Source: Ostreococcus lucimarinus
Taxonomy: Eukaryota
Length of the DNA stretch: 64,000 bases
NCBI GenBank assembly: GCA_000092065.1
Contig: CP000585.1
Reading direction: 5' to 3' (one strand)
The notes beneath the pieces are model-generated. The model was not told where the DNA came from. It saw only the letters and a list, made by a program, of their open reading frames with translations, and ran no database searches. Each line of letters starts with the position of its first letter. Position 1 is the first letter of the stretch. Both the position numbers and the translations under genes were made by a program. This document shows positions 3,301 through 60,024 of the stretch, one piece after another.

Positions 3301-3323
3301 AACGTCGAGGAGGGCACGGGACG

Positions 3324-25435: not shown

Positions 25436-26438
25436 ATGGCGTCGAGCGCGCCCGCGGCGCGACGGCGTGGCGTCGCGAAACCACCGCTGATGCCGCGCGC
25501 GAACGAACGCGACGACGACGACGCGCCGGCGCGCGCCGCGCGGGACGGGGCGACGGCGACGGGGACGATGCGACGGACGCCGAGCTTTTCTGACGAGCTC
25601 GGACACTATTTCAAGGGGTTCGGCAGGCACGACGCGTACGCGGGAGGAGAGCAGGTGCGCGCGCGCGTCCCGCTCGCGCGCGAAGACTCGACTCGACGCG
25701 AAGGCGAACGACGACGCGCGGTGGGCGAGGGGCGAGACGGACGGGAAAACGAGGACTGACGATGGCGCGCGATGATTCGCGGGCGAACGATCGGCGCAGA
25801 TACGACCTTTGATGCGAGGATGGGTGCACTTCGCGTGCGTCGTGGCGGCGCTGACTGGACGAGGGCTGGGATACTTTAAGAACATGCCGGAACGCGCGTC
25901 GCTGTTCGTGCAGTGCACGATGTTGACGTATTTGGGGTCGACGTGCTTGCACATGGTGCCGTGGAAGACCGCGCTCGGGTACGATGTGGCGTTGGCGATG
26001 GATTTTATCGGGATATCGTGGGGCTTCACCTCGCACTCTATTTTGTGGACGGGCGGCGTGCACAGTTTTAGTCAATTCGGCGCGGTGGCGGTGTTCGCGT
26101 GCATGTGCTTGATGCAGGTGGCGGCGTTTAAACAAAAAAATAAACGCGTGTTGATGTTTATGCGTCGTCGGCGGCTGACGCTGATCCTTTTGAATATGAT
26201 TTTCCTGGGCGTCGTCGAGGCGAGAGCCATCGAGGATTTCAAGACGATGGTGGCGATTCAGGTCCTCTCCAAGATTGTCTCTCCGTGGTATTTCATGGCG
26301 TGCACGCGCTTCGACGCGAAGCACAAGTCATTCTTTGAGATTCAAGGCGTGTGGGGGCCGCATGAAAATTGGCACGTCATCATTCTCGTCGTGCACTTGC
26401 TGCAGCTCAAGGCGCTGCTGTCGCAAGACTCGTTTTGA
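25436..26438 (+). CDS. PAQR/hemolysin-III-like (CREST superfamily) 7-TM protein. Inferred 2-exon model: 25436-25654 + 25800-26438.
   Basis: Exon 2 has seven hydrophobic segments with the CREST motifs STCLHM...LAMDFIGIS (SxxxH...D) and HENWHVIILVVH (HxxxH). TM1 begins MRGWVHF (compare NIWTHL). Exon 1 encodes ...LGHYFKGFGRHDAYAGGEQ. It is joined by a GTGCGC..CAG intron that keeps the frame. Confidence 0.45.
25655..25799 (+). other. Inferred spliceosomal intron (145 bp, donor GTGCGC, acceptor gcgCAG, phase 0) in the PAQR-like gene
   Basis: There is an in-frame stop (TGA 25773) between the two coding segments. Canonical GT..AG boundaries restore a continuous PAQR-like N-terminus. Confidence 0.4.
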
Positions 26439-26676
26439 CGCGTCGCGACGGAGATTGACGCGCCCGCGAGCGGACGAGATGCTCGCGAGGTGACGCGTAA
26501 TGGGGAGGCGTCAATAATATTGTACTTGAACGACGTATTGTTCGTGACGCGCGCGACGATGCTCGCTTGTAATTGGAAGAAGTGACGCGTTGTGACGCTC
26601 GCCTTCGCGCTCGGCCCGGCGCTCGCCGCACACTCCCGCGCGCTCGAGCTCGTCGTGCGTCGAGAGCGCGCGCGAC

Positions 26677-27172
26677 ATGTCGTTGAAGAAACTCTACGAG
26701 ACCCACCGCGCGGGTCAAGAGCAAGTCAAGCGCGAAGTCGGTGCGTCGTCGTCGTTCATTCGTTCGCTCGTTCGCGCTCGCGCGTAACACCAAACGCGCG
26801 CTCGCGCCGTGACTGACGCGCACCGCGCCGCGCGCGCGCCGTCTCGCTCCAGATGCGCTGCGCAAAGAGACCGTCGCGCAGGTGTCCGCGCTCGCGGACG
26901 CGATGACGGATTCGGTGAACCACGGCGTGGTTGAGGTGTTTGAGAATCAAAAGCAAGTCGAGTCGTCGGCGCGCGCGCTGAACGAGACGGCGACGGCGTT
27001 TCGAGAGCGGTCGAGCGAGTGGGCGACGTCGCTGGAGGCGTTCGATAAAGAGCTTAGAGATATCGGGGATTTTGAAAATTGGGTCAAGGCGATGGAGCAC
27101 GATTTGGCGACGTTAGCGGCGGCGTTGGAAGCGAAGGTGAACGCGAAGGCGGCGAATGCGGCGGAAAAGTAG
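26677..27172 (+). CDS. BLOC1S1: BLOC-1 subunit 1 (BLOC1S1/GCN5L1). Two exons: 26677-26740 + 26853-27172.
   Basis: Spliced product MSLKKLYETHRAGQEQVKREVDALRKETVAQVSALADAMTDSVNHGVVEVFENQKQ...FDKELRDIGDFENWVKAMEHDLATLAAALE aligns along its whole length with BLOC1S1 (KEIGDVENWARSIELDMRTIATALE). Confidence 0.75.
26741..26852 (+). other. Spliceosomal intron (112 bp, donor GTGCGT, acceptor ctcCAG, phase 1) in BLOC1S1
   Basis: Exon 1 read-through hits TAA. Splicing restores the conserved BLOC1S1 N-terminus. Confidence 0.7.
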
Positions 27173-27250
27173 CGAGCGAGTATTGTACAGTAAACAACGA
27201 AGATCTAGCATGAATCGTAGCGTCATCATCGAATCAAATCGTTTCATGAC

Positions 27251-28430
27251 TCACGCGTCGGCGGCTTGCATTTCGACGTCGTCGTTCTTCTCTTTGTGCG
27301 CCGAGACGGCGTCGAACAGGGCGCATTTGACGGCGTACGACGCGAACATTTTCGATTGCTCTATCGCGAGCGATATCGCGTCTTGCGTCACCGTGCCGAG
27401 CGCGGAAACATCGCCTGCTTTCTCTAAATTCGATCCCGACGTCGGGGACATCGACATCGAGGCGAGCGACGCCGAAGACGTCGTCGTCGGACCGCCTCGC
27501 TTGATTTCCTTTTCGGCTTTGGCAATCTTCCCCTCCATGTCCGAGACTTGACTCGCGATGAGTTTTCGATTCGCCAGCAGCGTCGACGAACTGAGTGTGT
27601 TGACCCAATACTTCTTCGTCAACGAATCCAAGTTACGCGCGTCGAGCGAGCTCTTGAAAAAGCTCACATCCAACGAGTAATACTTGTTCGCGTGTACGCC
27701 AAAGTCTTCTATCTTGCTCTTTGGGATTCCTAGATTACTCGACGTCGACGGCTCCTCGGGCGCGGTGTATCCATCCGGATACGTCCGAAACGCTCCAATC
27801 TCCACCTTTTCCGCGCGACTCGTCCGGATCGGATCGATGACGATGGCTAAAAACGGTTCCCCGTACCTCTGATTCATGCTCTGCGTGTTCACGTCGATGC
27901 CCGACAACCAGCAGCCGTATCCTGGATGCGAGTGATACCACCCGACGACGTTTTCGTGTCTCCCGACCGCCTTACACGTGTGCGTATACTCCACCATGTA
28001 TTCATACGCCTCCGCCTGCGCGTTGACGCGCGTTTCCGTGCCTTCGACCGGGAGTTCGAACACGTCCAGCACGATGAAGGCGTCGTCCTTCGCGTACCCT
28101 TGCAGCATGCCCATGACTTCGATATCCCCACCGCGTTTGCAGTGCGCCGTCATCTTCATCAGCGCCAGCGCGGACACCTTTACCCTAGAACATAAACGCG
28201 CGAGCGTTTCGCGCCGTCGTCAGTCGCCCGGACGCGTCGCGCGCGGCGTGCGACTCGAGAAAAGTGCGATTGCGAGCGCAATCTGCCGGGGACAACCGTT
28301 ACCTCTTAAAGTAGTGAGGATCGCGCGCCCAAGGCTTTTGAGCGACGAGGAGCTTGTGCGCGACTTCATCGTATGCGTAGAGTTCGTCCGAGGTCGTGAT
28401 GGGAGGCGGGAGTGGTGGGTCTTCGTCCAT
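27251..28430 (-). CDS. CSN5: COP9 signalosome subunit 5 (CSN5/JAB1), JAMM/MPN+ metalloprotease. Two exons: 28430-28303 + 28184-27251.
   Basis: The JAMM motif is included: [25 protein letters not shown]. The flanking [11 protein letters not shown]...[13 protein letters not shown] is near-identical to CSN5. Exon 1 ...[16 protein letters not shown] joins [11 protein letters not shown], matching the human CSN5 segment [23 protein letters not shown]. Confidence 0.85.
28185..28302 (-). other. Spliceosomal intron (118 bp, donor GTAACG, acceptor ttcTAG, phase 2) in CSN5
   Basis: Exon 1 read-through gives AAG AGG TAA (stop). Splicing restores the conserved CSN5 N-terminal segment. Confidence 0.75.
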
Positions 28431-28656
28431 GTCGACGAGGGCGCGAGTGCGGCGCAGTCCGCGTTCGTTTGGTTTGGCTTGGTCCGTTCGATTAAATTTG
28501 ATATTACAGATGAATTTGATGATACACGAGTACAACAGTGAATGGTTTTAATGTCTCGAGGATTTAAATCGTTTCAGTTCGTCGCGTGCGGCGCCTTGCG
28601 CGCCGCCGCGGTGGATGTTTGTAGCACTGATGCTTTCTTGGTTTTCGCCTCTTTCT

Positions 28657-30465
28657 TCAATCTTGAGGGAATCCGTATTGTTCGAGTAATCGAAGTGTCA
28701 CGCCGTTGGTCCAGCCGAAACCACGTTGAGGGATGTATTCGCCGCCTTTACCCACGCCGTCCTCGGTCGAGCGCACGTCGTACTTTTCGTGCATGTAGCC
28801 CGTTGACTTCCACGCTTGATGCGCGGTGCGGAGCCACGAGTGCGCGAGCGTCTTCGCGTACTCTTCCTCGCGAGGGGCGAAAATTTGTATCGCTTCGACA
28901 ATCATGTGAGTCTCCGGCGCCCAAGCGTTAGGCCAATCCCATTGCTGACCGCTCTCGACGAGTGAGGTCGCGATGCCTTTGTCGGTGACCAACTTGGACT
29001 TTTTCAACGACTCGACGACTTCGTACGCTTGATCGCTGTCGGGATCGCAAGCGCCGCACCAAAGCGGAGTAAAATCGCTCGTAAACGGGCTCTCAGATGC
29101 CGCCGTGAGATCATCGCGATCGCGCACGATTCCTCGGGTGTCTTCGCCCATGAGCGGTTCGAACGCCATGTCTCGCCACCGCTTGACGTCGTCGTCCCAA
29201 AGCACGGCGTCAATCGCGCGCCGCCGCACCTCGCTCGCACGGGAGAACTTCTCGAGCAAATGGTTCAAGTACACGCGCTCGGCGAAGAGCTCGTCTTCGT
29301 TTTCCAACGACACTAATGCCTCGCGGGCGAGCAAAGCGATTTGCGTCTCCACTCGTAGCATAAATCCGTTCAAGTCGGATGGAATGATGTTGCACGTGCG
29401 AATCGTCTCCAAGTTATCGCCGTCTAGGAACCATCTCGAGCTGAAGTCGAAGCCGCTCTCCGCCGCGCTAGCAAGATGTCGATATATCTTACGCTTAGCT
29501 TCGAGCTTGGCCACGGCGTCCTCCACCTTTCTGGTCGCTCGGCGCGCCACCTCGACGTCTTCGCGATAGCTCTCTGGCCTCGGACGCGTGGTGTTGGCAA
29601 AATATCGCGACAGCTCGTGCGTCTCTCCGGTTTCCGTGTCACGAATCGTCACCGTGCGTTCACTTCGAGTGAGATAGGCGTATTCTTGCACCAGCAACGG
29701 CAACGCCTGTCGCAACCACTCGACGTCTCGCGTCGCTTGAAACACCTCGGCGACGCACGACGACAACAACGGCGGCTGAGATCGATTCAAATAGTACACG
29801 CGCGCGCCGTTGGGCACGAATCCGTACGTGGTGACCATGTACAACAAATTATTCGTCACTCCCAGCGCCGTGGCCGGCATCTCGCTCGTTAACAACCCCA
29901 AAACGATCCAATACGTATCCCAGTAGTAGGTTTCCCTAAAACGTTCCCCCGGCACCACCGCCGGGTACGGCAATCGAATCCTCGAGCTCGTCGTCCGTCG
30001 CGCCTCGCCCTCCGCGCCGACTTCTTCCTCAGCGTAGTCATCCGCGTCCAACCGCGCGAGCACGCGCCACAGCTCGTGCACGTGCGTCGCAAACTCCCTC
30101 GACTTTTCGCACCTCGCCCCTCTCGCCACCGCCGGCTCGCTTCGCCAGTCCGCCAGTTCCGGCATCTTAGACCTCTCCCTCGGTCCGCTCTCGAAGTGTT
30201 CGTTCAAGAATTCCCGCGCCGCCACGCTACACGTCGCCGCTCGCGACTGCGCCAGCGCCTCGAACACCTTCGCCGGCGGTGATCTCGACCGCGTGTCCAC
30301 GAAATCCTTCGAGTCGCGCCAAATCGCCGCTCGGTGCACCGCCGCCAGTATCGCCGCCGTGCAAAACGCCGCGTACGGCGCCTGCGCGCCGTCCGTCGCC
30401 GCGCCGCCGTCTTCCTCGACGTCGTCTTCGCTCGTCATCGCGCTGTGCGCCGCGTCCGCGAGCAT
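28657..30465 (-). CDS. Trehalase (glycoside hydrolase family 37)
   Basis: GH37 signatures PGERFRETYYWDTYWIVLGLL and QWDWPNAWAP, plus full-length trehalase-like architecture. Confidence 0.85.
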   Translation of the reverse strand: MLADAAHSAMTSEDDVEEDGGAATDGAQAPYAAFCTAAILAAVHRAAIWRDSKDFVDTRSRSPPAKVFEALAQSRAATCSVAAREFLNEHFESGPRERSKMPELADWRSEPAVARGARCEKSREFATHVHELWRVLARLDADDYAEEEVGAEGEARRTTSSRIRLPYPAVVPGERFRETYYWDTYWIVLGLLTSEMPATALGVTNNLLYMVTTYGFVPNGARVYYLNRSQPPLLSSCVAEVFQATRDVEWLRQALPLLVQEYAYLTRSERTVTIRDTETGETHELSRYFANTTRPRPESYREDVEVARRATRKVEDAVAKLEAKRKIYRHLASAAESGFDFSSRWFLDGDNLETIRTCNIIPSDLNGFMLRVETQIALLAREALVSLENEDELFAERVYLNHLLEKFSRASEVRRRAIDAVLWDDDVKRWRDMAFEPLMGEDTRGIVRDRDDLTAASESPFTSDFTPLWCGACDPDSDQAYEVVESLKKSKLVTDKGIATSLVESGQQWDWPNAWAPETHMIVEAIQIFAPREEEYAKTLAHSWLRTAHQAWKSTGYMHEKYDVRSTEDGVGKGGEYIPQRGFGWTNGVTLRLLEQYGFPQD

Positions 30466-30790
30466 CTCGCGTCGTTCGACGACGATCTCGACCCGCTCGC
30501 GAATCGGCGCGCGCGCGCGCGTGCCCTCGGGGCGCGGCGACGCGCGCGCGACGCGCGACGCGCGCGGGCGCGCGCGCGACGCGCCGAGCGCGCGACGTAT
30601 CGAGACCGTTCGCGCCGTCCTGGCGGTGCGCGCGCGCGCGAGACGCGCTCACGCGCGGGGGAGTGACGGCCGGGTCGACCGCGCGACGCCTCGGGCCCCG
30701 ACCTTTGAGACACCGAAAGACGCGAAGGCGAGACGAGCACGCGAGAAACCGGCGCGGAGGCGGAGACGCGAACGCGCGAGCGCGCGAAAA

Positions 30791-30814
30791 AACGAACGAA
30801 CGAACGAACGAACG
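30791..30814. repeat. (ACGA)6 / (GAAC)n microsatellite in the trehalase-GST intergenic spacer
   Basis: acgaacgaacgaacgaacgaacga, followed by an AT-rich stretch (ttaaatcttcatctactttttacttttaatctcc). Confidence 0.9.
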
Positions 30815-30847
30815 AAATCGGGTTAAATCTTCATCTACTTTTTACTT

Positions 30848-31555: not shown

Positions 31556-31689
31556 CGGCGTCGTTCGCGCCGCGCGCGTCGCGATGCGGTCGCGACGCCG
31601 CGCCGCGCTGACGTCACGACGACGAGACGCGCGGCGCGCCCCGCACACGACGACGCGCGCGACGCTCGAAGCGCGGCGAACGGCGCGCG

Positions 31690-32256: not shown

Positions 32257-32408
32257 TTTAGATTTTGAAGATTGTTATCGACGTTCGCGCGTTCGTCTTC
32301 GTCCCCGCCGCCTCGTCGACGTCGATTGCCCGAGTTCGCGTCACTCGACGACGCGCGCGCGGTCGTTCGAGCGCGCGCTCTCTCTCGCGAGTTTATTTTC
32401 ACGACGTC

Positions 32409-34541: not shown

Positions 34542-34606
34542 CCGCGCCGCGTTCACATTGCTGTAACTCAACCGACACACGACTTTTCTTCACACGACGA
34601 CGCACC

Positions 34607-45956: not shown

Positions 45957-48900
45957 ATGTCTAGAGTCCCAACCCTCCGCGCTCCGCGCGTCGGTCCCCA
46001 GTCGTCGCCTCTCGCGCCCGTCATGGCGCGCGCGAGCCGAGGCGTCGACGCGTCCGCCGACGCGAATGCCGACGCGTCCGACGCGCCCGCCGACGCGCCC
46101 GACGCGACGTCGCCGCACGTCGACGCGGCGGTGGGCGCCGACGACGTCGCGCCCACCGCCGCGATCGCGCCCGACGCGCAATCCGCGCCCGACGCGCACG
46201 ACGCGAGCGACGACGACGCGCCGAACGCCGCGAAATCGGAGAATAAAAACAGCACCGGTCGCGGAAGCGGACGCGCGAGCGATGGACCGCACGGTGGCGG
46301 CGGCGACGGGACGCTGACGGTCACCCCGGACTCGCCCGCGGACGAGACGTGGCGCGCGCGGCGCGGGCCGCTGGACGCGAGCGACGGTGGACCGTGGACG
46401 AGCGAGGACAGCGCGGGTGCGTGAGATTAATTCGACGCGCGCGACGACGCGCGCGGGACGGGAGAGGGCGCGAGAGGGTGGTGGCGACGCGATGATGGAG
46501 TGGACCTAGTGGTGGATCTCTCGCGACGCGCGACTGACGACGGATGTACCGACGGAAACAGGGCCGCAACCCGTGGACATGTACGGGAAATTCACGTGGA
46601 AGATTGAAAACTTTTCGGAAATCAGTAAGCGGGAATTGCGATCGAACGTGTTCGAGGTGGGCGGGTATAAGTGGTACATTTTGGTGTACCCGCAAGGATG
46701 CGACGTGAGCAATCACCTGTCGTTGTTTTTGTGCGTCGCCGATTACGACAAGCTGTTGCCGGGATGGAGTCATTTCGCGCAGTTTACGATTGCGGTGGTG
46801 AATAAGGATCCGAAAAAGTCCAAGTACAGCGATACGTTGCACCGGTTCTGTAAGAAGGAGCACGACTGGGGTTGGAAAAAGTTTATGGAGCTCACGAAGG
46901 TGCTCGACGGTTTCACCGTGGCGGACACGCTCGTGATTAAGGCTCAGGTTCAAGTGATACACGAGAAAGTCGCGAGACCTTTCAGATGCCTAGACCCGCA
47001 GTACAGGCGCGAGCTCGTTCGGGTGTACCTTACGAATGTCGAGGTGCGTAGAGGCGAAAAGCGACGTCTCGAGCCGTCGAACCGAAACATCCATCGTGCT
47101 GATGAAAACACATATCAAGCATTTCTCGTTCTGAGCAATATATTCTGATGAACATCTATACACCCATAGAATCTGAACGATGGATGGATTCGAGCTCGAC
47201 TGACTCGAGCGCGCGCGTGGCGAGACAAGCGACGACGACTGACTTTATTTTCATCTTGACCAAACGCAGGGCATTTGTCGAAGATTTTTAGATGAGAAGC
47301 GCGAGAAACTGATGACGATGCGCGCGGACGAAGAGCAATGGTCAAATCTTCGTCAATTCTGGAACTCTCGCGAGGGGAAAGAGAAGGTACAGCTCACGAT
47401 GGAGAAGTCTGACATTCTGCTCAAGGGGATCGTCAAGCGCTTCTTCAACGAAAAGGAAGTGACGTCGACGCTCGTCATGGATGCACTTTACTGCGGCTGC
47501 CGCGCGTTGGACATCGCGGAAAATGACTTGGAAGCCAAGGCGACCTCCGTGAGTACCTCGAATAAGTGCTCTGTGGCCATGAGCATCGTGCAAAACAAGA
47601 GTGTTTTGACGGGTGACTTTGTCTCGGCGCTCGAGCGGGCCGCTGACGGAACCGCGTTTGACGCGGACGAAGAAGACAAGAAATCCGCCTCGGATGACCT
47701 GTCCGCCACCGATGCCGTCGAACGCGATGAAAAACGATTAGCCGAACTTGGTCGTCGCACCATCGAGATGTACGTTCTCTCGCACGTGTTTGTCAACCGC
47801 GTCGAAATCGCGTTTCGCGAAGCCGAGGCGTTGATGCGCCAAGAGGCGCTTATCGCTGAGGAGGAAGAAGCCGAACGACTCGCACAAGAGCTTGAAGGTC
47901 AGAAGAAGAGCAAGAAGCAAAAGCAAAAAGAGCGTCAACGACAGAAGAAGGCTATCGAAGACGCTGAGAAGGCTGAAAAGGAGGCGGAAGAGGCTCGCAT
48001 TCGCGAAGAAGCCGAAGCGGCGAAGGAAGCTGAGCGCGCCGCCAAGGCAGCTGCTAAGGCAGCAGCGTTGGCAGAAGAGCGCGCGCGCGAGGAGGCGGAA
48101 GCGGCCATCAAAGCAAAGGCTGAAGCCGAAGCTCGCGCCGCGCGCGAAGCCAAGGCAGCGGCCAAGGCTGCCGAGAAGGCGAAACGAGAAGCCGAGGAAA
48201 AGGCCAAGGAGGACGAGGCGAGAAAGCTCAAGGAGGAAGCCGAAGCTAAGGCCGCCGCGGAGGCCGCGGCGAAGGCTATTCCGTCCCCTAAAGCTGATAG
48301 CCCTTCGACGCCCACCCGCACGAAGTCCATGTCGCAAGTTTCGTCACCTTCGAAGGTTATCCCGGCTCCGTTGTCGAACGAAGTGAGCACGTTGCGTTCG
48401 CGAATCTCTCAGCTCGAGCTTCAGCTCGACGAGAAGACGAGCGAATGCGCGCAACTTACCGCGGATTTGGACAAAGCGAAGGATATTATTTTGCAACTAC
48501 GAAGCGAGATGGTGAGCGGTGTATCGTCGATGTCGATGCAAAAGCAGTCGTCCATGGAGTCGCTTGGCGATGTCGCTCGTACCGCCCAGGCGGCTTCGGC
48601 GATGCTCGGCGATAGCACCAATATCGTGCGCATGGGATCATCGAGCATGATCGCGAATGGCGCATCCAACGGTGCGGTGACGTCGGGTATGCAGCCGATT
48701 TTGGCGAGCGCCAAGTCGCAGCCTCCGCTTCCTCCCGGGCCTCCGCCTCCAGGAAGCGGCGACGTCGGTCCGCCGCCGCCGCCGCGCGGTCCGCCGCCGC
48801 CTGGTTCGGCGCGCGTGAACGAAACTGGACCTGCATCGCCGCAACACAGTTCTAACAGCGGCTTACCGCCTTCCTTCGCCGCCATGGCGGCTGGATCGCG

Positions 48901-49120
48901 TCCGCCAGAACCTCCAGTGGTGCCGCCCGGCATGAGTAGCTACGGTCAACAACCGCCGCCGCCCGGCATGGGTCAGCAAGTCAATCCGCTCGGCACACCG
49001 CCATCGATGAAAACTATGGCCCCACCTCCGGGGATGGGTCACCCTTCCACGTGGTCTCCGGGCATACAGGAAGAGTTCCCGCACCTCGGCATGATCAGCG
49101 ACCTGTTGGACTTCGATTGA
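45957..49120 (+). CDS. Plant-type TRAF-like MATH-domain + coiled-coil protein. Three exons: 45957-46416 + 46562-47043 + 47270-49120.
   Basis: MATH domain YGKFTWKIENFSEISKRELRSNVFEVGGYKWYILVYPQGCDVSNHLSLFLCVADYDKLLPGWSHFAQFTIAVVNKDPKKSKYSDTLHRFCKKEHDWGWKKFMEL follows Arabidopsis TRAF-like proteins almost residue by residue. Exon junctions restore ...SAGPQPVDMYGKFTW and ...RVYLTNVE|GICRRFLDEKREKL (compare YLTNVEQICRRFVEEKRSKL). C-terminus EFPHLGMISDLLDFD. Confidence 0.75.
46417..46561 (+). other. Inferred intron 1 of MATH gene (145 bp, donor GTGCGT, acceptor aaaCAG, phase 1)
   Basis: Exon 1 read-through hits TGA directly after the donor. The downstream frame has a stop (TAG ~46508) before the conserved GPQPVDMYGKFTW. 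Confidence 0.6.
47044..47269 (+). other. Inferred intron 2 of MATH gene (226 bp, donor GTGCGT, acceptor acgCAG, phase 0); AT-richer than its flanks
   Basis: Exon 2 read-through shortly gives stops. Splicing joins YLTNVE to GICRRFLDEKREKL, exactly as in plant homologs. Confidence 0.7.
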
Positions 49121-50502: not shown

Positions 50503-50560
50503 AGCGACGCACGTCCGAGCGAACGCCGCCGTCGCCGTCCGTCCGTCTCAGCGAAAAAAA

Positions 50561-50582: not shown

Positions 50583-50791
50583 TCGGCGCCGACGCGTCAT
50601 TCCGAGACGCGACGATCGCGTCGCGCGACCGCGTCGACGCGCGCGGGCGACGTCGCGACGCGCGCGAGCGACAAAAACTAAAACGAGCGAACGAACGCGC
50701 GCGCGCGAGGTCGACGGCGCGACGCGGGCGCGGGCGCGCGACGCGGTGATTACGAATTCGACATTCGTCGTCGACACTCATCGGCGGACGC

Positions 50792-51859
50792 ATGGGGAAA
50801 GACTTTTACGAGACGCTGGGGGTGTCGCGCGCGGACGCGGACGATCAGGAAAAATTGAAAAAGGCGTACAAGAAGGCGGCGCTGAAATCGCACCCGGATC
50901 GACCGGGAGGCGACGCCGAAAAGTTCAAGGCGGTGGGTTTGGCGTACGATGCGCTGAGCGACGCGAACAAGCGGACGATATACGACCGATACGGTGAGGA
51001 GGGGTTGAAGCAAGGGTTCGTGCCGCCGGAAGCGAGGGGCGAGGCGAGCGGTGCGAGCGCGGGTGGGTTTCCGGGAGGAGGATTTTCGGGAAGCGCGCCC
51101 GGGAGTGGATTTCGCGCGTCGAGCGGCGGCGGCGGTTTCGGGTTCCCCGGCGGCGGCGGGTTTCATGAATTCACCGGTGCAGACGCGGAAGATTTGTTCG
51201 CCAGGTTTTTCGGCGGTGGCGGCGGCGGCGGCGCGGGGTCACCGTTTGGAGGAGGAATGGGCGACGCGTTCGGCGCGGGCGTGGGGAGCAAACGACGTCG
51301 TCCCGAGTGCGTGTTGAATCTCGAGTGCACGCTCGAGGAGCTGTTTAGAGGCGGACGCCGGGACATCAACTACGTTCGAAACGTGCGTGCGGGAACGAGC
51401 GGTCAGATGGCTCAAAGTAATGAGTGCATCTCGATCGATTTCAAACCCGGTTGGAAAACCGGCACGAAAATTACATTTGCCGGAAAAGGGAACGAAGACG
51501 CGCAAACCGGCGAAGCGGCGGATCTGGTCGTGGTGATCAAGGAAACGCCGCACAAATTCTTACGACGAGATGGAGATGACTTGGTGTACGAAGTTCCTCA
51601 AATCTCACTTCGCAGCGCGTTGATTGGTTGGAAGGTTGAATTCGTCAACGTAGACGGCGAGAAGGTGCGTCTATCGTTCGACGATCCTACGGCTCCAGGA
51701 TCGGCGCGCGCGGTTCGAGGAAAAGGAATGCCGAATCAGAAGACCGGGCGGAGAGGCGACCTCATCGTCACCGTAAAAACCGTCAAGTTTCCCTCGCATC
51801 TCAACTCGAAACAAAAAACATTGCTACGCGAAGCCTTCGCTCCAGGTGCCGCGGCGTGA
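50792..51859 (+). CDS. DnaJ/Hsp40 co-chaperone, subfamily B (Sis1/DNAJB-like)
   Basis: J domain: [60 protein letters not shown], with HPD motif. Followed by a Gly/Phe-rich region and the C-terminal peptide-binding domains. Confidence 0.85.
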
Positions 51860-51914
51860 GCTTCGTGGCGCGTAGACCGTCGGTACAATATTTTGTCATC
51901 ATCGACATATTACA

Positions 51915-54356
51915 TCACATCATCTTTCGAAAGTTCTCTCTAATTTGTTCTAGTTTGTGCGTCGGATTCGCGCTCTTTTTCATTTCCTTACCCGCGCATT
52001 CCACCGCTTCTTCGACGAGCAAATCGATGTCGTCGCCGATGCCTCGAAGGATGGCGTCAATTTCCGATCGGAGGCGTCGACATCGTTTCACGTCGATCGG
52101 CGTTAAAGCGTCATCGTCGACTTGATCGGATTTCGATTCCGCCTTCGAGCCATCGTCACCGATGGTTTGCGTCGCGGTAGTTTCCTTCGACTTGGCGCTC
52201 GCGCGAACGCGTGCGAGTTCTTCTTCGTAATCTTTGAGCATTTGTTTCGTTCGCGGGTTGAGGGTCGGATCGATTTCGTTGGAAATCGTTCGCATGCGAC
52301 ACGACGCGGCGTGGCCTTCCGCGTTGTACGGCGACACGTCTTCCTTCCCACAAGAACCGCACACGTGGTATCCAGAGCACTCGCCTTTCTTCTGCGAGCA
52401 AAATCCCTTCGCGCTACCGCCGAGGAGGGCCTTTTCAAACTCGCGAATGCCGACCATGGACTTCATGAAGTATAAAAAGCATGGTTGCTTGTTCGCGTCC
52501 GGAATCACACCGCACACAGAGTGCAGTTTACACTCTGGCTTGTGTTTGCCGCGTCCTTCTTCACCGCAGTGACCGCAAATGTGTCGAGAGTGACATCGAT
52601 CGCCCTTGCCGCACAACGCCCAGCCACCGCTGCTTCCGATTTTAAACTTTTGCGAGTCGCTCTCCATCTTGAAATAGTCTCCGAGAGAGTGCAAGTAGTA
52701 CTTTCGACACAAATCGACTGGAGCAGAGTCGGCGAAGACGGCGTGTAAGCGACACGTCGGTAAATGCGCGTCGTTGCCGCTCTTTCCGCACGCGCCGCAC
52801 ACGTGCTCGAGCATGCACTTGTCGCTGCGGGGACACAAATTCCAAACGTGCTTTTCTTGATCCCATCCGTTACGCAAAGCTCCGCCGGTGTCGTCCACGG
52901 AGTTCAAGTAATAATCCAAGCACACTTTGTTCTCCACGCGTTTATGAATGTTGGCGTAGAGTGACGGACACATTCCAAACGTGTGACGCGGCGACTCGCA
53001 GAGTTGACACACGTGTCGACTCACGCACCCGTTGCATCCGAACTTATCCCCGCGCAAATTAAACGCAGTGCATATTTCACCAGCCGACGGCTCGCGCTGC
53101 AGATCGCGGAACACGCTGTTCGTCGGTGGCGCGGAAACTTCCTCCTTGATGGAATCGTCGTCGAGCGCAGAATCGCCCAACGTCTCCGTGGCTTGACGAA
53201 GTATGCGCGATCGATTCAACAGATCTGTGAGTTCGGCCGGGGTGGCGTCCAGACCCAGTGCATCCGCTTCGAATCGACCGGCTGTGAGTTCGGCGAGGTC
53301 GATTTCGTCTGCATCGCCGCCACGAAGTCCGGAAATGTCTTCGTGCGGCGCCACGTCGACACCATCTTCTAGCGCGCCTCCGAGGACACCACTCGCTGAG
53401 GCGTCCACGGAAGAGAAAAACGGACTCAATTCTCTGTCACCCGCTGACGGGACGTTGTGCTCGAGTTGTTGATGCGAGTTCACCGACGGTGAAGTGTATC
53501 CGAGAGGGATGTTCGCGCCCACGCGCGCGTCTCCTGTATCACCTCCGAGAAGCGCCGCGGAAAAATCACTCATCATACTTTCGATGTAATCATCACCGCT
53601 CGCTCGCGCTGGCGCGGCTTCGCTCGGCGACGCGAAGGCTGGCGAAAAGAACGACGGCGACGCGGCGCCAAACGTACCCAGCGGCAGCGACGACGCACCA
53701 GGGCCGGACGCACTCCCCATCGGCGGTGTCTGCCCGTTCGTCGACGTCGGCCCACGAGTCGCGGTGCCCCCGCGCGTCGTTCGCGGCGTCAACATCGGCG
53801 ACTTCGTCCGAGTCGGTTGCCCCGTCGGTTGCCCCGCCGCGCGCGTCGGCGCCGGCGGCTCGCTCTGTATTATCCCTCCCGCTTCATCCTTCCTCAAAAT
53901 CCGCGGACTCGCCCCTTTCATGATCCCGCTCAACATCCCCAACACGTCTTGGTTCGTCGCTCCCATCATCTTCGCCGGCGGCGGTCCGCTCGGCGAGCCC
54001 TCCGTCGACGTCTCCCCGCGGTTCGCCGGCGCCCCGACGTTCGCGTTCGTCGCCTCACCATCATCCAGCACGCACACCCGTTCGCCGCGTTCCACTCGCA
54101 CCACGCGTATCGCTCGCGCGTTCACCAGCTCTCGCTCCACGTTCGCGTCGACGCACACGAATTCTTCCGCGTTCAGCGCCGCGCGCGCCGCGCTCGAGCT
54201 CACCAGCACCCGATCTGGGCTCTTCAGTCCGATCAGAATCACCCCGAGCCGTCCGCCGCCCGCCGAGCGCGTCTCGACGACGTATCGCTGTTTCTTCGTC
54301 CCGTCCGCGCCGAGCGCGAGCTTGAACACGCGCTTGGCGTCCGCGGGGGCGGGCAT
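51915..54356 (-). CDS. Multi-zinc-finger protein with four tandem Cys/His modules (pattern C-x5-C-x3-H-x-C-G-x-C-G-x7-9-H-x3-C-x2-H), family unassigned
   Basis: CNGCVSRHVCQLCESPRHTFGMCP; CPRSDKCMLEHVCGACGKSGNDAHLPTCRLH; CGKGDRCHSRHICGHCGEEGRGKHKPECKLH; CSQKKGECSGYHVCGSCGKEDVSPYNAEGHAASC. Long S/P/G-rich low-complexity region and an acidic/coiled C-terminus. Confidence 0.55.
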   Translation of the reverse strand: MPAPADAKRVFKLALGADGTKKQRYVVETRSAGGGRLGVILIGLKSPDRVLVSSSAARAALNAEEFVCVDANVERELVNARAIRVVRVERGERVCVLDDGEATNANVGAPANRGETSTEGSPSGPPPAKMMGATNQDVLGMLSGIMKGASPRILRKDEAGGIIQSEPPAPTRAAGQPTGQPTRTKSPMLTPRTTRGGTATRGPTSTNGQTPPMGSASGPGASSLPLGTFGAASPSFFSPAFASPSEAAPARASGDDYIESMMSDFSAALLGGDTGDARVGANIPLGYTSPSVNSHQQLEHNVPSAGDRELSPFFSSVDASASGVLGGALEDGVDVAPHEDISGLRGGDADEIDLAELTAGRFEADALGLDATPAELTDLLNRSRILRQATETLGDSALDDDSIKEEVSAPPTNSVFRDLQREPSAGEICTAFNLRGDKFGCNGCVSRHVCQLCESPRHTFGMCPSLYANIHKRVENKVCLDYYLNSVDDTGGALRNGWDQEKHVWNLCPRSDKCMLEHVCGACGKSGNDAHLPTCRLHAVFADSAPVDLCRKYYLHSLGDYFKMESDSQKFKIGSSGGWALCGKGDRCHSRHICGHCGEEGRGKHKPECKLHSVCGVIPDANKQPCFLYFMKSMVGIREFEKALLGGSAKGFCSQKKGECSGYHVCGSCGKEDVSPYNAEGHAASCRMRTISNEIDPTLNPRTKQMLKDYEEELARVRASAKSKETTATQTIGDDGSKAESKSDQVDDDALTPIDVKRCRRLRSEIDAILRGIGDDIDLLVEEAVECAGKEMKKSANPTHKLEQIRENFRKMM

Positions 54357-54603
54357 CGCGCCGCGTTCGCGGACTCGACACGGCGCGGGCGGCGCGACGC
54401 GAAACCGCGCGCGCGGTCGCGGCGCGTCCGCAAACGCGGCGCCGAACGACGCTCGATGCGCGCGTCGACGTGCCGCGGGCGCGGGCGCGGGCGCGCGCGC
54501 GACGAGGGACGCTCGCGGGACGCGGAGTGACGCGACGGGAGGTTGGCAGTCAACCGCCGGGGCGCGCGAGGCGGGCGACGAAGGAATCGAATGACAACTC
54601 GAG

Positions 54604-55407
54604 CTACTTCTTGCGCCTGACGGCTGGCTTGCGCTTCTGCGCCGGTTTACGCTTCGTCGCGGGCCTGCGAGCGGACGCGCCCGAGGCTTTGGAGGTCTCC
54701 GCGGCGCGCTTGCGCTTGGCGCCGACGGCGACGTCTTCGTCGTCGACGTCTTCGTCCTGGTCGAAGAGCGAACCGACGCCGAAATTCTCCATGCCGCCCA
54801 TCGCGCTCGGGTCTTCGCGAAGCTGCACGAACTCGCGGTGTACGCTCTCGATCTTGGCTACGTCGGCGTTGACGGCGACGACGACGACGGTGCCGGCGCT
54901 CGAGACGACGCGCGCGTTGTACATCACGCCCTTCATGTCAACCTTGAGCGCGCGCGAGGACTCGGCGAGCCAACGACCCACGGCGCCGGTATCGCCGTCT
55001 AAATCCACCGCCTCTCCGGCGCCTTCGATCTCAAACAAAACCTTGGACTTACCGCCTAAATTCGCCGTCGCGACGAGCTCCACGGCTGTCGAAGACGACT
55101 CCGCCGCCGGCTTCGCCGCGAGCGCCTTCGCCGTCTTCCCTTCGCTCGCCTTCGCCGCGTCGCCCGTCTCCCTCGCCGTCGTCGTCCCCATCGCGTCCTC
55201 ATCGCCACCACCGTCCCTCACCGCCGCCCTCGCCTCGTTCTCCTTCCCGTCGTCCGCGTCCACGATTCTCAAATCGTCGTCGCTCGACGAAGCCGCCGCC
55301 GCCGTCGCCGCCGCGCGCGTCCGCTCCGGCGACTTAAATTTCTCCACCCACGCCGGTTCGCTCTCGCTTCCCGATCCATCGTCGTCCGCGATCGTCGGCA
55401 GCGTCAC
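54604..55407 (-). CDS. Hypothetical protein (267 aa) with acidic N-terminus, central beta-rich segment and basic KRK-rich C-terminus. Start is GTG in the track (ATG start unresolved).
   Basis: ORF with protein-like central region LFEIEGAGEAVDLDGDTGAVGRWLAESSRALKVDMKGVMYNARVVSSAGTVVVVAVNADVAKIESV and a nuclear-localisation-like tail KRKRAAETSK...RKPAQKRKPAVRRKK. Confidence 0.4.
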   Translation of the reverse strand: MTLPTIADDDGSGSESEPAWVEKFKSPERTRAAATAAAASSSDDDLRIVDADDGKENEARAAVRDGGGDEDAMGTTTARETGDAAKASEGKTAKALAAKPAAESSSTAVELVATANLGGKSKVLFEIEGAGEAVDLDGDTGAVGRWLAESSRALKVDMKGVMYNARVVSSAGTVVVVAVNADVAKIESVHREFVQLREDPSAMGGMENFGVGSLFDQDEDVDDEDVAVGAKRKRAAETSKASGASARRPATKRKPAQKRKPAVRRKK

Positions 55408-55527
55408 CGTTCGTTTCTTCGTCGGCGTCGTCGTCGCCGTCTATCGCGCGTCGCGTCGTCGTTTCGTTTCGTTGCGTCAGTCGGTCCGCCGCGTTTGAAT
55501 TCCAGACAGCTCGTCGCGCGCGCGTCG

Positions 55528-55551
55528 CCATCCATCCATCCATCCATCCAT
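55528..55551. repeat. (CCAT)6 microsatellite in the divergent spacer between the 54604-55407(-) and 55759-56691(+) genes
   Basis: ccatccatccatccatccatccat. Confidence 0.9.
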
Positions 55552-55758
55552 CGTCGTCGCGTCGCGTCGTCGTCGTCGCGCACCTCGATCGGACTCGCGA
55601 CGGCGCGCAGCAGACTCGGTAACGGTTTGAACTCGTCGTCGTCGCTCGAGTCGTCGTTGATGACGATCATCGGCGCGAATCGATCGACCGCGCGCGTCGA
55701 AGAGTGACGCGATCGACTCGACGTCAATCATCGACGCGTCGCGCGTCGCGCGCGCGCG

Positions 55759-56691
55759 ATGCCGCGCTTGGAGCTCGAGCGCGATGACGTGCGAATAACG
55801 CCGACGCGCGGGCTCGGGTTCGCGTGCGAGACGGTGTCGCCGAAGCGCGACGGCGAGGCGATGAAGTCGACGGAGGTTGGTTCGGTGCTGCTGTTGCACG
55901 GATTGAATTCGCACGCGACGAACCCGAACGCGCGCGCGATGGCGGTGGCGCTCGCGAAACGAGGGATGCGAGTGATATCGTTCGATCTGCCGGGACACGG
56001 GGCGTGCGAGAGCGATGGGGACGCGCGAGGGGTGTACGCGGGGAAGGAGGCGGCGTTGGCGCGGGCGCGAAGCGCGTTGGCGGCGACGGCGACGGAAAGA
56101 TTCACGATCGTTGGATCGTCCATGGGAGGCGCGTTGGCGATATTTTGCGCGAATGCGATGCGCGGCGAGGAGGGACGCGCGGTCGAGCGCGTGGTGTTGA
56201 TAAATCCGTTGATGAAGATGAAGATGGCGCTGCCGCGCGTCGCGTTGGCGGCGCTGCGACTGGCGAGCTACGCGGCGCCGCGGTTGGAGGTGTCGCCGAA
56301 ACCGAGGGATAAGCTCGACGTGGACGAAGATCAGAGACCTGACTTTGACGACGAGGCGCAGGCGCAGTGCGACGCGGACGCGTTGAGCTGGGATAAAGGG
56401 GTGTCGTTGCGCACGGCGGTGGAGCTGTACGATTTAGTAGCGCACAACGCGGGAAATCGGCCGGAAGATTGCGGCATGGTGCGCTTGAGCTTCGAGACTC
56501 CCGTCTTACTCATCACGGGCGGACGCGACAACGTCATCTCGCCCGACACCGCCATCGATCGCGCGAAATTGGCCGTGCAAGCAGGTGGGAAGGCGGAGCA
56601 CGTGCAGTTCGCGCTCGCCGGGCACTCGTTGACTTTGCAAAGTCGCAGAGAAGAAGTGTTCGATCTCGTCGCGAATTGGCGATGGAAGTGA
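55759..56691 (+). CDS. Alpha/beta-hydrolase fold protein (serine hydrolase; lysophospholipase/monoacylglycerol-lipase-like)
   Basis: LLHGLNSHATNP...MRVISFDLPGHGAC...FTIVGSSMGGALA (GxSxG nucleophile elbow) ... ITGGRDNVISPD ... AGHSL (catalytic His region). Confidence 0.7.
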   Translation: MPRLELERDDVRITPTRGLGFACETVSPKRDGEAMKSTEVGSVLLLHGLNSHATNPNARAMAVALAKRGMRVISFDLPGHGACESDGDARGVYAGKEAALARARSALAATATERFTIVGSSMGGALAIFCANAMRGEEGRAVERVVLINPLMKMKMALPRVALAALRLASYAAPRLEVSPKPRDKLDVDEDQRPDFDDEAQAQCDADALSWDKGVSLRTAVELYDLVAHNAGNRPEDCGMVRLSFETPVLLITGGRDNVISPDTAIDRAKLAVQAGGKAEHVQFALAGHSLTLQSRREEVFDLVANWRWK

Positions 56692-56753
56692 GGTGAGGAT
56701 GTAATGATAATATCGGCTATTTCTTGTACACGACGTCCATCGGCTAAGAGATC

Positions 56754-57506
56754 CTATGCGACCGTTTTGTAAATGGTCAAAGACACGCCGAGTACGACGA
56801 GAATTAATATCGCGTCCATGCAAAATTTTCTCGTCGAGCGAATCTTCGTCACCGCCTCCTTCAACCGGGAGTTCGCCGTTCGCATGTCCGCGTTCACGGA
56901 ATCGAGCTTATCTTCGATCGCATCCGTGATCGGTTGCTGACGGCGCATCTCCTCTTGCATCTCGCCCCCGATGTCCTTCAACACGCCCAAACCGCGCGAG
57001 ATGACGTCCAAGCCTTTGTCTTGCTTGGCTTTCCGAGCTTCAAACTCTTGTCTAAACGCTTCGCTCGCCTCGCTTTGCTCCATGTTCAAGAACGGATTCG
57101 CACTCGATCCCGGATCGGCGTCGCTCGAGATGTTCACCACGGTCGACGTCCCCCCGAATCCCCCCGCCGGCTTTTTCTTTTGCGGCGGCAACCCGCGCGT
57201 GACGCCATCCGCCACCGCCTCGACTCGATCCTCCAAATTATCCACAATCTCCAACATCGCACGCACGTCATCCTCCGTCGTCCCCGCACTCTTCACCCTC
57301 GCGACCTTCCTCAGCTTCGGCAGCTCCCCGCGCAGATAATTCTTCCCTCGACGCACCTCCGCGTTGAGCGTCGCCACCGTCGCTCGATTTCGTTCGCTCT
57401 TCACCGCCGCCGCCTTTTCAATCAATTCTTCCAAAACCGTCTCCGAATTCGTCAGCATCGCCGCGAACGCATCGGTACCGCGTAATTTCGATATTCTCTC
57501 CTCCAC
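56754..57506 (-). CDS. Qc-SNARE, syntaxin-6/Tlg1/SYP6-like (SNARE motif + C-terminal TM anchor). N-terminus possibly incomplete (GTG start in track).
   Basis: DKGLDVISRGLGVLKDIGGEMQEEMRRQQPITDAIEDKLDSVNADMRTANSRLKEAV...RKFCMDAILILVVLGVSLTIY is collinear with syntaxin 6 ([74 protein letters not shown]). Confidence 0.7.
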   Translation of the reverse strand: MEERISKLRGTDAFAAMLTNSETVLEELIEKAAAVKSERNRATVATLNAEVRRGKNYLRGELPKLRKVARVKSAGTTEDDVRAMLEIVDNLEDRVEAVADGVTRGLPPQKKKPAGGFGGTSTVVNISSDADPGSSANPFLNMEQSEASEAFRQEFEARKAKQDKGLDVISRGLGVLKDIGGEMQEEMRRQQPITDAIEDKLDSVNADMRTANSRLKEAVTKIRSTRKFCMDAILILVVLGVSLTIYKTVA

Positions 57507-57571
57507 CTGCGCCGTGGTCTCCGTTTTCGGGAGATAGGCGTCGTATCTATCGCCGTTCGCGCCACCTGGTC

Positions 57572-57572
57572 A

Positions 57573-57601
<29 letters not shown>
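57572..57601. repeat. (GTC)10 microsatellite upstream of the syntaxin gene
   Basis: gtcgtcgtcgtcgtcgtcgtcgtcgtcgtc, ~65 bp upstream of the syntaxin ORF start and ~350 bp upstream of the YeeE-like ATG. Confidence 0.9.
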
Positions 57602-57604
<3 letters not shown>

Positions 57605-57950
57605 TCGTCTCCCTCTCGTCCGCCCCGCGTCCCACCGCCGCGCCTCTCCTCGTTCGACGACGCGCATCGCTCGCGTTTTCGCCCTCGCACGCACTTCTTC
57701 AACAGCGCGTCCGCGCGCGCGAGCAAATCTCCCGCCGACGCCATGCGCGCGCAAACGTCTTCCCGTCGTCGCGATTCCCGTTTTCCCGTCCCGTTTCCCC
57801 GTCGTCGCGCGCCCCCGTCGCCGCCGATCGACGCGCTCGACCGTCCGTCGTCGATCGACGCGTCCTCGATGTCGCGTCGCGCGTCGCGCGTCGCGCGGCG
57901 TCGCGTTTTGCCGTTCGATTCGCAGCGCGTCGTCGTCAGAATCGCGCGGG

Positions 57951-58997
57951 ATGTCGCGCGGCGCGCTCGAGTTCGCGCCCCATCACGCGCTGGGCGGCGG
58001 CGTCCTGCTCGGCCTGGCCGTGATCGGCAAGCTCGCGCTCACCGGGCGCGTGCTCGGCGTGAGCGGCGCGTTCAAGGGGCTCGTGCGGGGCGATCGCGCG
58101 CCGTGGCGCGTCGCCTTCGTCGGTGGTTTGCTCGCCGCGGGGGCGTGCGCGCGCGAACTCGGCGCGCTGGACGCGAGCGTGTCGACGGCGATGGTGAGCG
58201 GCGCGCGCGCGGCGTGCGCGGGGGCGCTGGTCGGCGTCGGCACGGCGATGGGACGGGGGTGCACGAGCGGGCACGGCATCGTCGGCAACTCGCGGCTGAG
58301 CGCGCGGAGCGCGGCGTACACGGTGACGTTCATGCTGGCGGGAGCGGTGACGGCGACGATGTTCGACACGAACGAGGCGCTGGGGGTGGACTCGACGCGA
58401 TACACGCTCGGGCGAGGGGCGCGGAGCGCGGAGGCGGATGAATTCGGGCTGTGGGTAAAAGTCGGCGCGGCGAGCGCGTGCGCGTTCGCCGCGGCGTGGT
58501 TTTACATCGCGCGCGCGATCAAGACGGGGAGTGACGATGGGAAGGAGGGACCGAGCGCGGCGAAGCGACACGCGATCGACGTCGTCGTCGACGGCGCCGC
58601 TGGGTTTACGTTTGGCCTAGGGCTGGCGGTGAGCGGGATGATGTCGCCGGCCAAAGTGTCGGGATTTCTGAGCGTCACGCGAGCGTCTTTCGACCCTTCG
58701 TTGATGTTTGTCATGGGCGGCGCGATGGCGGTGACGATGATCGGCATGCGCGTCATCGGCGCGCACACCGGTCGCCGACCGGCGTGCTCGTACAACTCGT
58801 TCGACTTCTCGTCGAACACCAAAATCGATAAACCTCTGCTGTTGGGCGGCGTGTTATTCGGCGCGGGCTGGGGCTTGGCCGGCATTTGCCCCGGTCCCGC
58901 CATGGTGTCCTCCGTCGCGACGCCGAGCGCGGAAAACTTGATGTGGATCGCCTCCTTCATCGCGGGCATGTGGGCGCACGAACGCGCCGCCGGGTGA
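57951..58997 (+). CDS. YeeE/YedE-family (DUF395) sulfur-compound (thiosulfate-type) transporter-like membrane protein
   Basis: Two-repeat polytopic membrane protein with the family Cys motif: VGVGTAMGRGCTSGHGIVG in repeat 1 and a related GAGWGLAGICPGPAMV in repeat 2. Gly-rich TM helices throughout. Confidence 0.65.
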   Translation: MSRGALEFAPHHALGGGVLLGLAVIGKLALTGRVLGVSGAFKGLVRGDRAPWRVAFVGGLLAAGACARELGALDASVSTAMVSGARAACAGALVGVGTAMGRGCTSGHGIVGNSRLSARSAAYTVTFMLAGAVTATMFDTNEALGVDSTRYTLGRGARSAEADEFGLWVKVGAASACAFAAAWFYIARAIKTGSDDGKEGPSAAKRHAIDVVVDGAAGFTFGLGLAVSGMMSPAKVSGFLSVTRASFDPSLMFVMGGAMAVTMIGMRVIGAHTGRRPACSYNSFDFSSNTKIDKPLLLGGVLFGAGWGLAGICPGPAMVSSVATPSAENLMWIASFIAGMWAHERAAG

Positions 58998-59219
58998 TTC
59001 GTCGCGCGATTCGATCCCGTCGACGCTCGTCGTCGATCATTGTGTCAATAATATAATGTAATACTACCTTGTACCTCTGCTTTCAATATCACGAGCGCTC
59101 GTTCGCGTTGGCGTCCGCGTCCGTCGCCTTCGCGCGCCGCTCGCGCGACGCCGCGTCCGCGTTCTCGGAAAAATCTCGTCCAGACCTGACCCTGGAGCTG
59201 CGGCACAATCGCACGCGTC

Positions 59220-60024
59220 ATGGCCTCCACCTCGTGCGCCTTTTCCGTCACCGCGCGTCCGCGCGCGACGAACAAATCCACCGCTCGCGGTAAACGCGTC
59301 GTTCGCGCCCGCGCGGCGGACGCCGAGGCCGCGCCGGCGGTGGATGTGAGCTCGACCGAGGTGCGATCGCGACGCCTCTTCGCCATCGTTTTCGCGCGCG
59401 CGACGCGAACGACGCGCGCGAGCGCGCGCGAAACGCGGCCGAGACGCGGATGCGATCGCGTCGCGTCGCGGGGGTCGACGACGCGGCGCGCGCGATCGGA
59501 GGCGCGATGAAAGAGACGCGGATATGCGAAAGTTATCCATAAAGACGACGAAGGCGCGCGGCGACGGGAGGACTGACGACGAAGGCGCGCGCGCGCGACG
59601 AACGCAGGTGAAGCAGTTCTACTACTGCGTCGCGAACGCCGATTTTATGCTCAACGATGAGAACAACGAGCACTTCCCGGAGATTTTGCGCGAACGACGA
59701 CGATTCTTCAAGGAAAAGTCCAAGCCGCAAGACTTTTGGATCGTGCCGAACCCGGCGTTTTTGGACGCGATGCCGGACGTGAAGAAGAAGATTCGTCAGC
59801 CGTGCGTCGCGGTCGTCACCACGGACAAAGTTTGGAACGATTTCGTCAAGTTGCGCATGGATAGAGTGTACAAGGGCGGCGTCGAGGGCGCGGTGTGCGA
59901 TATTTTGAAGAGCTCCGCCGCCATCGATCCGAACGCGTTCCCGGCGCCGACGAATTGGACCGCGCCGTACGCCAAGTACGCCGCGGGTTGGTGGAACGCC
60001 TTCGAGCCCAACGGTGGATTTTAA
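59220..60024 (+). CDS. ycf54: Ycf54 (LCAA; Mg-protoporphyrin IX monomethyl ester cyclase accessory factor) with chloroplast transit peptide. Two exons: 59220-59345 + 59608-60024 (an alternative donor is possible).
   Basis: Exon 1 gives a typical cTP: MASTSCAFSVTARPRATNKSTARGKRVVRARAADAEAAPAVD. Exon 2 VKQFYYCVANADFMLNDENNEHFPEILRERRRFFKEKSKPQDFWIVPNPAFL matches cyanobacterial Ycf54 (YYYALASQKFLLEEEPFEEVLKERRRDYGEKNKEIDFWQV..PAFL). Confidence 0.7.
59346..59607 (+). other. Inferred intron of ycf54 (262 bp, donor GTGAGC, acceptor acgCAG, phase 0). Alternative model: donor GTAAAC at 59290 with acceptor gaAG at 59584 (phase 1).
   Basis: Exon 1 frame continues into low-complexity sequence and stops at 59510. 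The Ycf54 homology only begins at 59608. Both models keep the frame. Confidence 0.5.

Follow-up and report, generated by a model that had tools for sequence, protein, structure and literature searches.

The introns of Ostreococcus lucimarinus that lie outside chromosome 2 and are confirmed by expressed sequence tags have been described by Irimia & Roy 2008 (PLoS Genet, PMC2483917), who reported an "atypical consensus" donor GTGCGTG, with ACTGAC in 87.2% and GACTGACG in 66.5% of these introns. Canonical introns of Micromonas likewise combine AG/GTGCGT (here and below, a slash marks the exon boundary) with NCTGAC and are found mostly in the 5' part of genes, while introner elements (IE) are defined by their repeated interior sequence; the donors of IE-A1/A2 read AG/GYGCGT and the short IE-C of RCC299 carry GACTGACG (Verhelst 2013, PMC3879977). 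Here we analyse the introns in a 64-kb stretch of O. lucimarinus contig CP000585.1 (hereafter, the window), which is gene-dense and has a GC content of about 61%. Six short introns had been recovered from this stretch in an initial annotation, which noted that their recurring GTGCGY donor might be the donor consensus of the genome, or might instead mark a recently propagated, introner-like family. Our analysis covers nine introns, in the genes for a PAQR-like membrane protein, BLOC1S1/GCN5L1, CSN5, an isopentenyl phosphate kinase-like protein (IPK), a MATH/TRAF1-like protein (two introns), an unnamed acidic protein, a SYP7-type SNARE and ycf54.

All nine introns have GT..AG ends, and their removal restores an intact reading frame. 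Eight of them begin with GTGCG (six with GTGCG(T/C)), a string found at 4.0% of the GT sites in the window, so that the probability of at least 8/9 by chance is 6e-11. The earlier count of four GTGCG(T/C) donors among six introns is correct (PAQR-like, BLOC1S1 and both MATH introns) and is itself improbable by chance, as GTGCGY accounts for 2.3% of the GT sites (P = 4e-6 for at least 4/6). The second signal is GACTGAC, present in 9/9 introns and extended to GACTGACG in 7/9, with 23-40 nt separating the branch A from the acceptor. In the 128 kb of both strands together there are 17 copies of ACTGAC, ten of which lie in the nine introns (1,368 nt in total) in the sense orientation, corresponding to an enrichment of about 55-fold; seven of the 17 occurrences are located within the six reported introns (two of these in MATH intron 2), and it was the three remaining intronic ones that flagged the further introns. 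A G precedes the donor (exon position -1) in 8/9 cases, and every intron is located in the first (5') third of its coding sequence (CDS). The ending acgCAG was correctly noted for two introns, MATH intron 2 and ycf54; its nominal P-value is about 0.003-0.008, for a hexamer picked post hoc, and CGCAG ends 4/9 introns, so the acceptor context amounts at most to a mild preference.

We interpret the nine introns as canonical U2-type spliceosomal introns of O. lucimarinus with uniform signals, and not as members of a spreading family, with a probability of roughly 0.93. From what is generally known of splicing, U1/U6 would recognise the donor motif and SF1/U2 the branch motif. Outside chromosome 2, O. 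lucimarinus is an intron-poor species, whose few introns carry unusually uniform signals, i.e. a donor (A)G/GTGCGTG and an extended branch motif GACTGACG at the above distance from a YAG acceptor. Following Irimia & Roy 2008 (PMC2483917), this uniformity may be attributed to strong selection for high-quality splice signals in a genome with few introns. Shared GTGCGY donors are, on this interpretation, a requirement of the splicing machinery of the species, and no sign that the introns have a common origin. A consensus for donor and branch site in O. lucimarinus has been in print since 2008, and the first of the two earlier suggestions, that GTGCGY is the donor consensus of this genome, agrees with it as well as with the eight GTGCG donors found here. 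Our direct examination concerns the nine introns of the window, and the genome-wide statement leans on the published survey. Three observations weigh against our interpretation: the CSN5 donor, GTAACG, is non-consensus; for the BLOC1S1 junction and for both MATH junctions we found no spanning O. lucimarinus RNA contig; and the IPK intron is not universal, being absent from the relative L006 (see below).

Excision at the RNA level is documented for six of the nine introns. The reported introns were located by reading frame and splice signal, and exact k-mers spanning the junctions (40-mers; a 56-mer for CSN5) were sought in RNA contigs. They were found for CSN5 (contigs L001, L002 and L003), ycf54 (L007, L008, L009 and L010, from four separate runs), IPK (L011 and L012), the unnamed gene (L013, L014 and L015) and the SNARE gene (L007), while the splicing of the PAQR-like gene is documented by RNA-derived and NCBI proteins. 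The models of BLOC1S1, MATH intron 1 and MATH intron 2 rest on homology, orthologous introns and splice signals. It is conceivable that one of these three is spliced otherwise, or that the upstream "exon" is a separate open reading frame (ORF) or an untranslated region (UTR): besides the missing junctions, the NCBI model of BLOC1S1 is a partial one that lacks exon 1, and the ycf54 junction first proposed was plausible yet wrong. We nevertheless assign only a slim chance to this possibility. The Pfam GCN5L1 alignment continues from exon 1 of BLOC1S1 into exon 2 and contig L002 breaks exactly at the acceptor, the junction of MATH intron 2 lies within a gap-free alignment to Volvox (77% identity), the conservation of the coding sequence of MATH exon 1 in L006 extends as far as the donor, with the orthologous intron 1 spliced in the protein P0305, and all three introns carry GTGCGT and GACTGAC at the expected spacing. 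The homology across junctions that had been claimed for BLOC1S1 (GCN5L1 profile), CSN5 and MATH intron 2 (Volvox and land plants) is borne out.

The age of the introns was assessed from their positions in relatives. L004 is a metagenome contig with 93% nucleotide identity to the window; L016 (59% GC) and L017 (64% GC) are distant syntenic relatives, with roughly 60-77% identity of the CSN5 protein; L006 is a syntenic low-GC relative (49% GC) that probably belongs to Bathycoccus, and L018 is a further low-GC relative with an IPK ortholog. Positional conservation was examined for the PAQR-like, BLOC1S1, CSN5, IPK and both MATH introns, and each of the six has a counterpart of unrelated sequence at an identical position and phase in diverged relatives within the Mamiellales. 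In L004, L016 and L017, the PAQR-like, BLOC1S1 and CSN5 introns all keep their site and phase (that of BLOC1S1 also in L005). L004 retains the splice signals of all three, while in L016 and L017 the intron sequences are unalignable to ours and the donors read, in this order, GTTCGT and GTACGT (CSN5), GTGCGC and GTGGGC (PAQR-like) and GTACGT and GTGCGT (BLOC1S1). The IPK intron is found at the identical position and phase in L018 (GTGCGT..GACTGACG..AAAG), and is missing from the Bathycoccus-like ortholog in L006, where HGAGSFGH/MDAKRCG is contiguous. The same site and phase combined with unrelated intron sequence indicate that the introns are old and vertically inherited. The comparison with orthologs, proposed earlier as a check, shows all six introns in place in relatives that range from 93% nucleotide identity to other genera; only one of them (IPK) is absent from a relative, L006.

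Positional conservation sets only a minimum age of the introns, and Micromonas IE-C introners share GACTGACG. One could therefore imagine that the uniformity of GTGCGTG and GACTGACG is what remains of an ancient burst of introners in an ancestor of Mamiellales, their interiors having decayed until only the selected signals were left; we regard such an origin as very improbable.

We consider it extremely unlikely that the GTGCGY introns form an introner-like family, i.e. recent copies of a mobile element comparable to IE-A or IE-C of Micromonas. The motifs are compatible with introners, given the GYGCGT donors of IE-A1/A2 and the GACTGACG of IE-C, and the IPK intron (84 bp) is short, internally repetitive and lacking in L006. 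However, singleton canonical introns have been documented to carry identical signals, and motifs common to canonical introns and introners cannot by themselves separate the two. What does separate them is repetition of the interior and recent gain, and neither was seen in our comparisons of the nine introns, the window and the relatives. When the nine interiors, trimmed of the donor and of everything from the branch site to the acceptor, are aligned locally in pairs, the scores do not exceed 29, near the level of dinucleotide-shuffled sequences, and most z-scores are about 3 or below; the one outlier (z 7.9, in reverse orientation) corresponds to a CGT/ACG repeat. A blastn comparison of every intron with the 64 kb of the window yielded only low-complexity matches of 15-38 nt composed of CG or GAC. 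Such CG and GAC runs are also common in coding sequence.

DNA-transposon introners with terminal inverted repeats and target-site duplications are said to have been described by Huff and co-workers in 2016. The nine introns have no terminal inverted repeats, the longest inverted matches being 5-8 nt of CG runs, nor is there a consistent direct repeat across their boundaries that would represent a target-site duplication. Taken with the conservation of six introns at the same position and phase, with unrelated sequence, in relatives that include one of 49% GC and others with only 52-77% protein identity, these results speak against the suggestion of a recently propagated family: the check for shared internal sequence proposed with it, applied to the nine introns and the window, returned nothing beyond low complexity, and no other copies were found in the window. 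The supplement of the introner survey of Gozashti 2022 lists Ostreococcus genomes, and we found no statement as to introner detection in them.

Finally, practically no credence can be given to the view that the shared donor merely follows from the composition of a CG-rich genome (61% GC), since, although GTGCG(C/T) occurs 180 times in the window (both strands) and CG-rich hexamers are common, GCG follows so few of the GTs compared with 8/9 donors, the companion motif ACTGAC is enriched in introns as described above, MATH intron 2 still begins with GTGCGT at 49% GC, and relatives of low GC content keep the motif (GTGCGA in L006, GTGCGT in L018).

Table 1. Introns of the window, the genes that contain them and a predicted intronic small nucleolar RNA (snoRNA); the branch-motif column gives the distance upstream of the acceptor in brackets.
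Feature	Position	Strand	Length (bp)	Phase	Donor	3' end	Branch motif	Remarks
PAQR-like membrane-protein gene	CDS 25436-26438	+						spliced ORF intact
PAQR-like intron	25655-25799	+	145	0	GTGCGCG	GCGCAG	GACTGACG (40 nt)	
BLOC1S1/GCN5L1 gene	CDS 26677-27172	+						
BLOC1S1/GCN5L1 intron	26741-26852	+	112	1	GTGCGTC	CTCCAG	GACTGACG (36 nt)	
CSN5 gene	CDS 27251-28430	-						
CSN5 intron	28185-28302	-	118	2	GTAACG	TTCTAG	GACTGACG (35 nt)	
Isopentenyl phosphate kinase-like gene (IPK)	CDS 44770-45912	+						
IPK intron	44939-45022	+	84	1	GTGCGAC	TCGCAG	GACTGACG (26 nt)	
MATH/TRAF1-like gene	CDS 46023-49120	+						
MATH intron 1	46417-46561	+	145	1	GTGCGTG	AAACAG	GACTGACG (24 nt)	
MATH intron 2	47044-47269	+	226	0	GTGCGTA	ACGCAG	GACTGACT (27 nt)	49% GC
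C/D-box snoRNA in MATH intron 2	47090-47182	+						unannotated; predicted from sequence, snoR8a-like
Unnamed acidic protein gene	CDS 54604-55670	-						
Unnamed acidic protein gene intron	55441-55583	-	143	0	GTGCGCG	CGATAG	GACTGACG (36 nt)	
SYP7-type SNARE gene	CDS 56754-57744	-						
SYP7 SNARE intron	57547-57694	-	148	2	GTGCGTG	CGATAG	GACTGACC (23 nt)	
ycf54 gene	CDS 59220-60024	+						
ycf54 intron	59361-59607	+	247	0	GTGCGAT	ACGCAG	GACTGACG (31 nt)	

The PAQR-like gene encodes a protein whose junction GGEQ/IRPLM is present exactly in the NCBI model XP_001417852.1 (241 aa), and our spliced model is identical, save for one F/V difference, to P0285, a protein of 285 aa derived from Logan RNA assemblies. 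Searches with the protein gave no Pfam match with E <= 1, nor any match to PDB sequences with E <= 10. Motifs readable by eye (STCLH, MDF and HENWH) would fit the SxxxH, D and HxxxH pattern of the PAQR/CREST proteins; the label "PAQR-like", based solely on these motifs, is tentative. Between the window and L004, this intron is only 78% identical, with indels.

BLOC1S1, once spliced, matches positions 3-110 of the Pfam GCN5L1 profile with 106.1 bits and without a gap over the junction, compared with positions 12-110 and 100.6 bits for exon 2 alone. The NCBI model XP_001417853.1 is a partial protein of 90 aa that comprises only exon 2.

Spliced CSN5 (353 aa) is found exactly as an ORF of an MMETSP transcript; this protein and that of ycf54 (185 aa) were found in transcript-derived sources only, without NCBI accessions. 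The identity between the window and L004 is 95.5% for the BLOC1S1 intron and 97.5% for the CSN5 intron, and thereby exceeds that at the third positions of codons in the neighbouring exons (88.6% and 93.9%, respectively), a comparison based on small numbers.

The MATH gene contains two introns. Splicing of intron 1 restores the reading frame, and at the same site L006 has an intron GTAGGT..ACTGAC..AAACAG, the spliced form of which is represented by the transcript-derived protein P0305. Removal of intron 2 yields RVYLTNVE/GICRRF, which aligns without gaps to RVYLANVEGICRRF of Volvox (the 77% identity extends over 242 aa) and to the land-plant TRAF1a/b homologs, with 60-81% identity; L006 has an intron in this position too, with the donor GTGCGA. 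With its MATH domain, the encoded protein is a close ortholog of TRAF1a/1b of plants (At5g43560-type), the 60-81% identity being found over about 240 residues in land plants and Volvox. For exon 2 (46562-47043), the identity with the protein from a low-GC relative is 96%.

A conserved snoRNA of the C/D-box type, similar to snoR8a of plants, is predicted within MATH intron 2. The candidate has a 6-bp terminal stem (CCATCG/CGATGG, the slash here separating its two strands) and boxes C (TGATGA), D' (CTGA), C' (TGATGA) and D (CTGA). Its best Rfam match, to plant snoR8a, covers the whole model and scores 29.1 bits, short of the gathering score (37), with E = 0.004 in a 401-nt search. Between the window and L006 (about 9900-10000 in the latter), strong conservation within the intron is confined to the two blocks made up of a guide and its box. 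The D-box guide ACACCCAUAGAAU is presumably complementary to the conserved 18S stretch AUUCUAUGGGUG. Hosting of a snoRNA may explain the length of the intron, its higher AT content and its retention across genera. At gathering thresholds, Rfam gave no match across the whole window, and the E-value searches found nothing in the ycf54 intron or in 25600-28350.

The further introns, in the IPK, unnamed and SNARE genes, were missed by the initial annotation. The spliced IPK protein (352 aa) is present in the protein collection and the unspliced form of 380 aa is not. Because the intron is in frame, free of stop codons and 84 nt long, prokaryote-style gene callers read through it. Databases hold "isopentenyl phosphate kinase" proteins of 383 aa with a spurious insert GATRRTRATRR.., and the intron varies between strains by a 9-nt repeat unit. 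The unnamed acidic protein (307 aa) is found in the collection in its spliced form; its intron contains a microsatellite (GATG)5-6. The spliced SNARE (280 aa) is exactly XP_001418101.1, and about ten GAC units lie directly upstream of the branch site of its intron. A looser scan for introns based on CTRAC produced many false candidates inside long ORFs, of which only those bearing GACTGAC proved real.

Five of the six introns first reported (PAQR-like, BLOC1S1, CSN5 and both MATH introns) were exact to the base; the sixth, that of ycf54, had its acceptor placed correctly and its donor misplaced. The RNA contigs place the junction at 59360/59608, i.e. the donor at 59361, and the 185-aa ycf54 proteins P0098 and P0101 accordingly read ..AVDVSSTE/VKQFYY. 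The donor proposed earlier, GTGAGC at 59346, would give a plausible in-frame intron of 262 bp, but this junction occurs in none of the contigs L007-L010; the alternative donor GTAAAC at 59290 is out of frame with the acceptor at 59607. Transcript junctions, which the initial annotation had suggested as a check, thus support its CSN5 model and correct that of ycf54.

The source of the window is confirmed by encoded proteins that are identical to records of O. lucimarinus CCE9901, namely XP_001418101.1 (the spliced SNARE), XP_001417863.1 (a hydrolase), XP_001417856.1 and XP_001417852.1, the last being the PAQR-like protein starting at the second methionine. In the regions 27066-30161 and 51211-60340, the RNA contigs L001, L007 and L013 reveal no further splices. 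Each of these three contigs traverses several neighbouring genes on both strands, which points to overlapping transcripts or UTRs in a compact genome. Two RNA contigs end exactly at splice sites, L002 between 26852 and 26853 (the BLOC1S1 acceptor) and L013 at 57546. Elsewhere in the window, a single ORF of about 3,900 codons occupies 3111-14831 (plus strand), with a GC content of 0.52-0.57 compared to 0.62-0.68 around it.

The biological import of these results is small, and they give no indication of introners in Ostreococcus. Their value lies in annotation: the ycf54 junction is corrected, three RNA-confirmed introns are added, and BLOC1S1 gains exon 1 and the MATH gene a hitherto unannotated intronic snoRNA, which is predicted.

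The closest known counterparts of the nine introns are the canonical O. lucimarinus introns outside chromosome 2 (PMC2483917), with which they agree in GTGCGTG, ACTGAC/GACTGACG and the GT-AG ends, as well as in low intron density and lengths of roughly 100-250 bp; GTAACG of CSN5 falls within the published minority of donors, and there is no substantive difference. The canonical introns of Micromonas RCC299 and CCMP1545 (PMC3879977) are alike in AG/GTGCGT, the CTGAC-type branch motif, singleton sequence and 5' placement, but differ in the distance from the branch site to the acceptor (43-52 bp, compared with 23-40 nt here) and in their less extended motif (NCTGAC). With the IE-A and IE-C introners of Micromonas (Worden 2009; Verhelst 2013; Simmons 2015, PMC4540971) our introns share GYGCGT (IE-A1/A2), GACTGACG (IE-C), GC-richness and location in genes; however, the interiors of those introners can be aligned and recur in tens to thousands of copies, and close lineages differ in the presence or absence of the elements, whereas the introns described here have no common interior sequence and keep their positions across genera. 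The BOC1/chromosome-2 introns of Mamiellophyceae are also spliceosomal GT-AG introns and occur in the same organisms, but they are short and AT-rich, with weak 5' sites (GTRNGT) and no discernible branch motif, and the introns of the window represent the opposite type.

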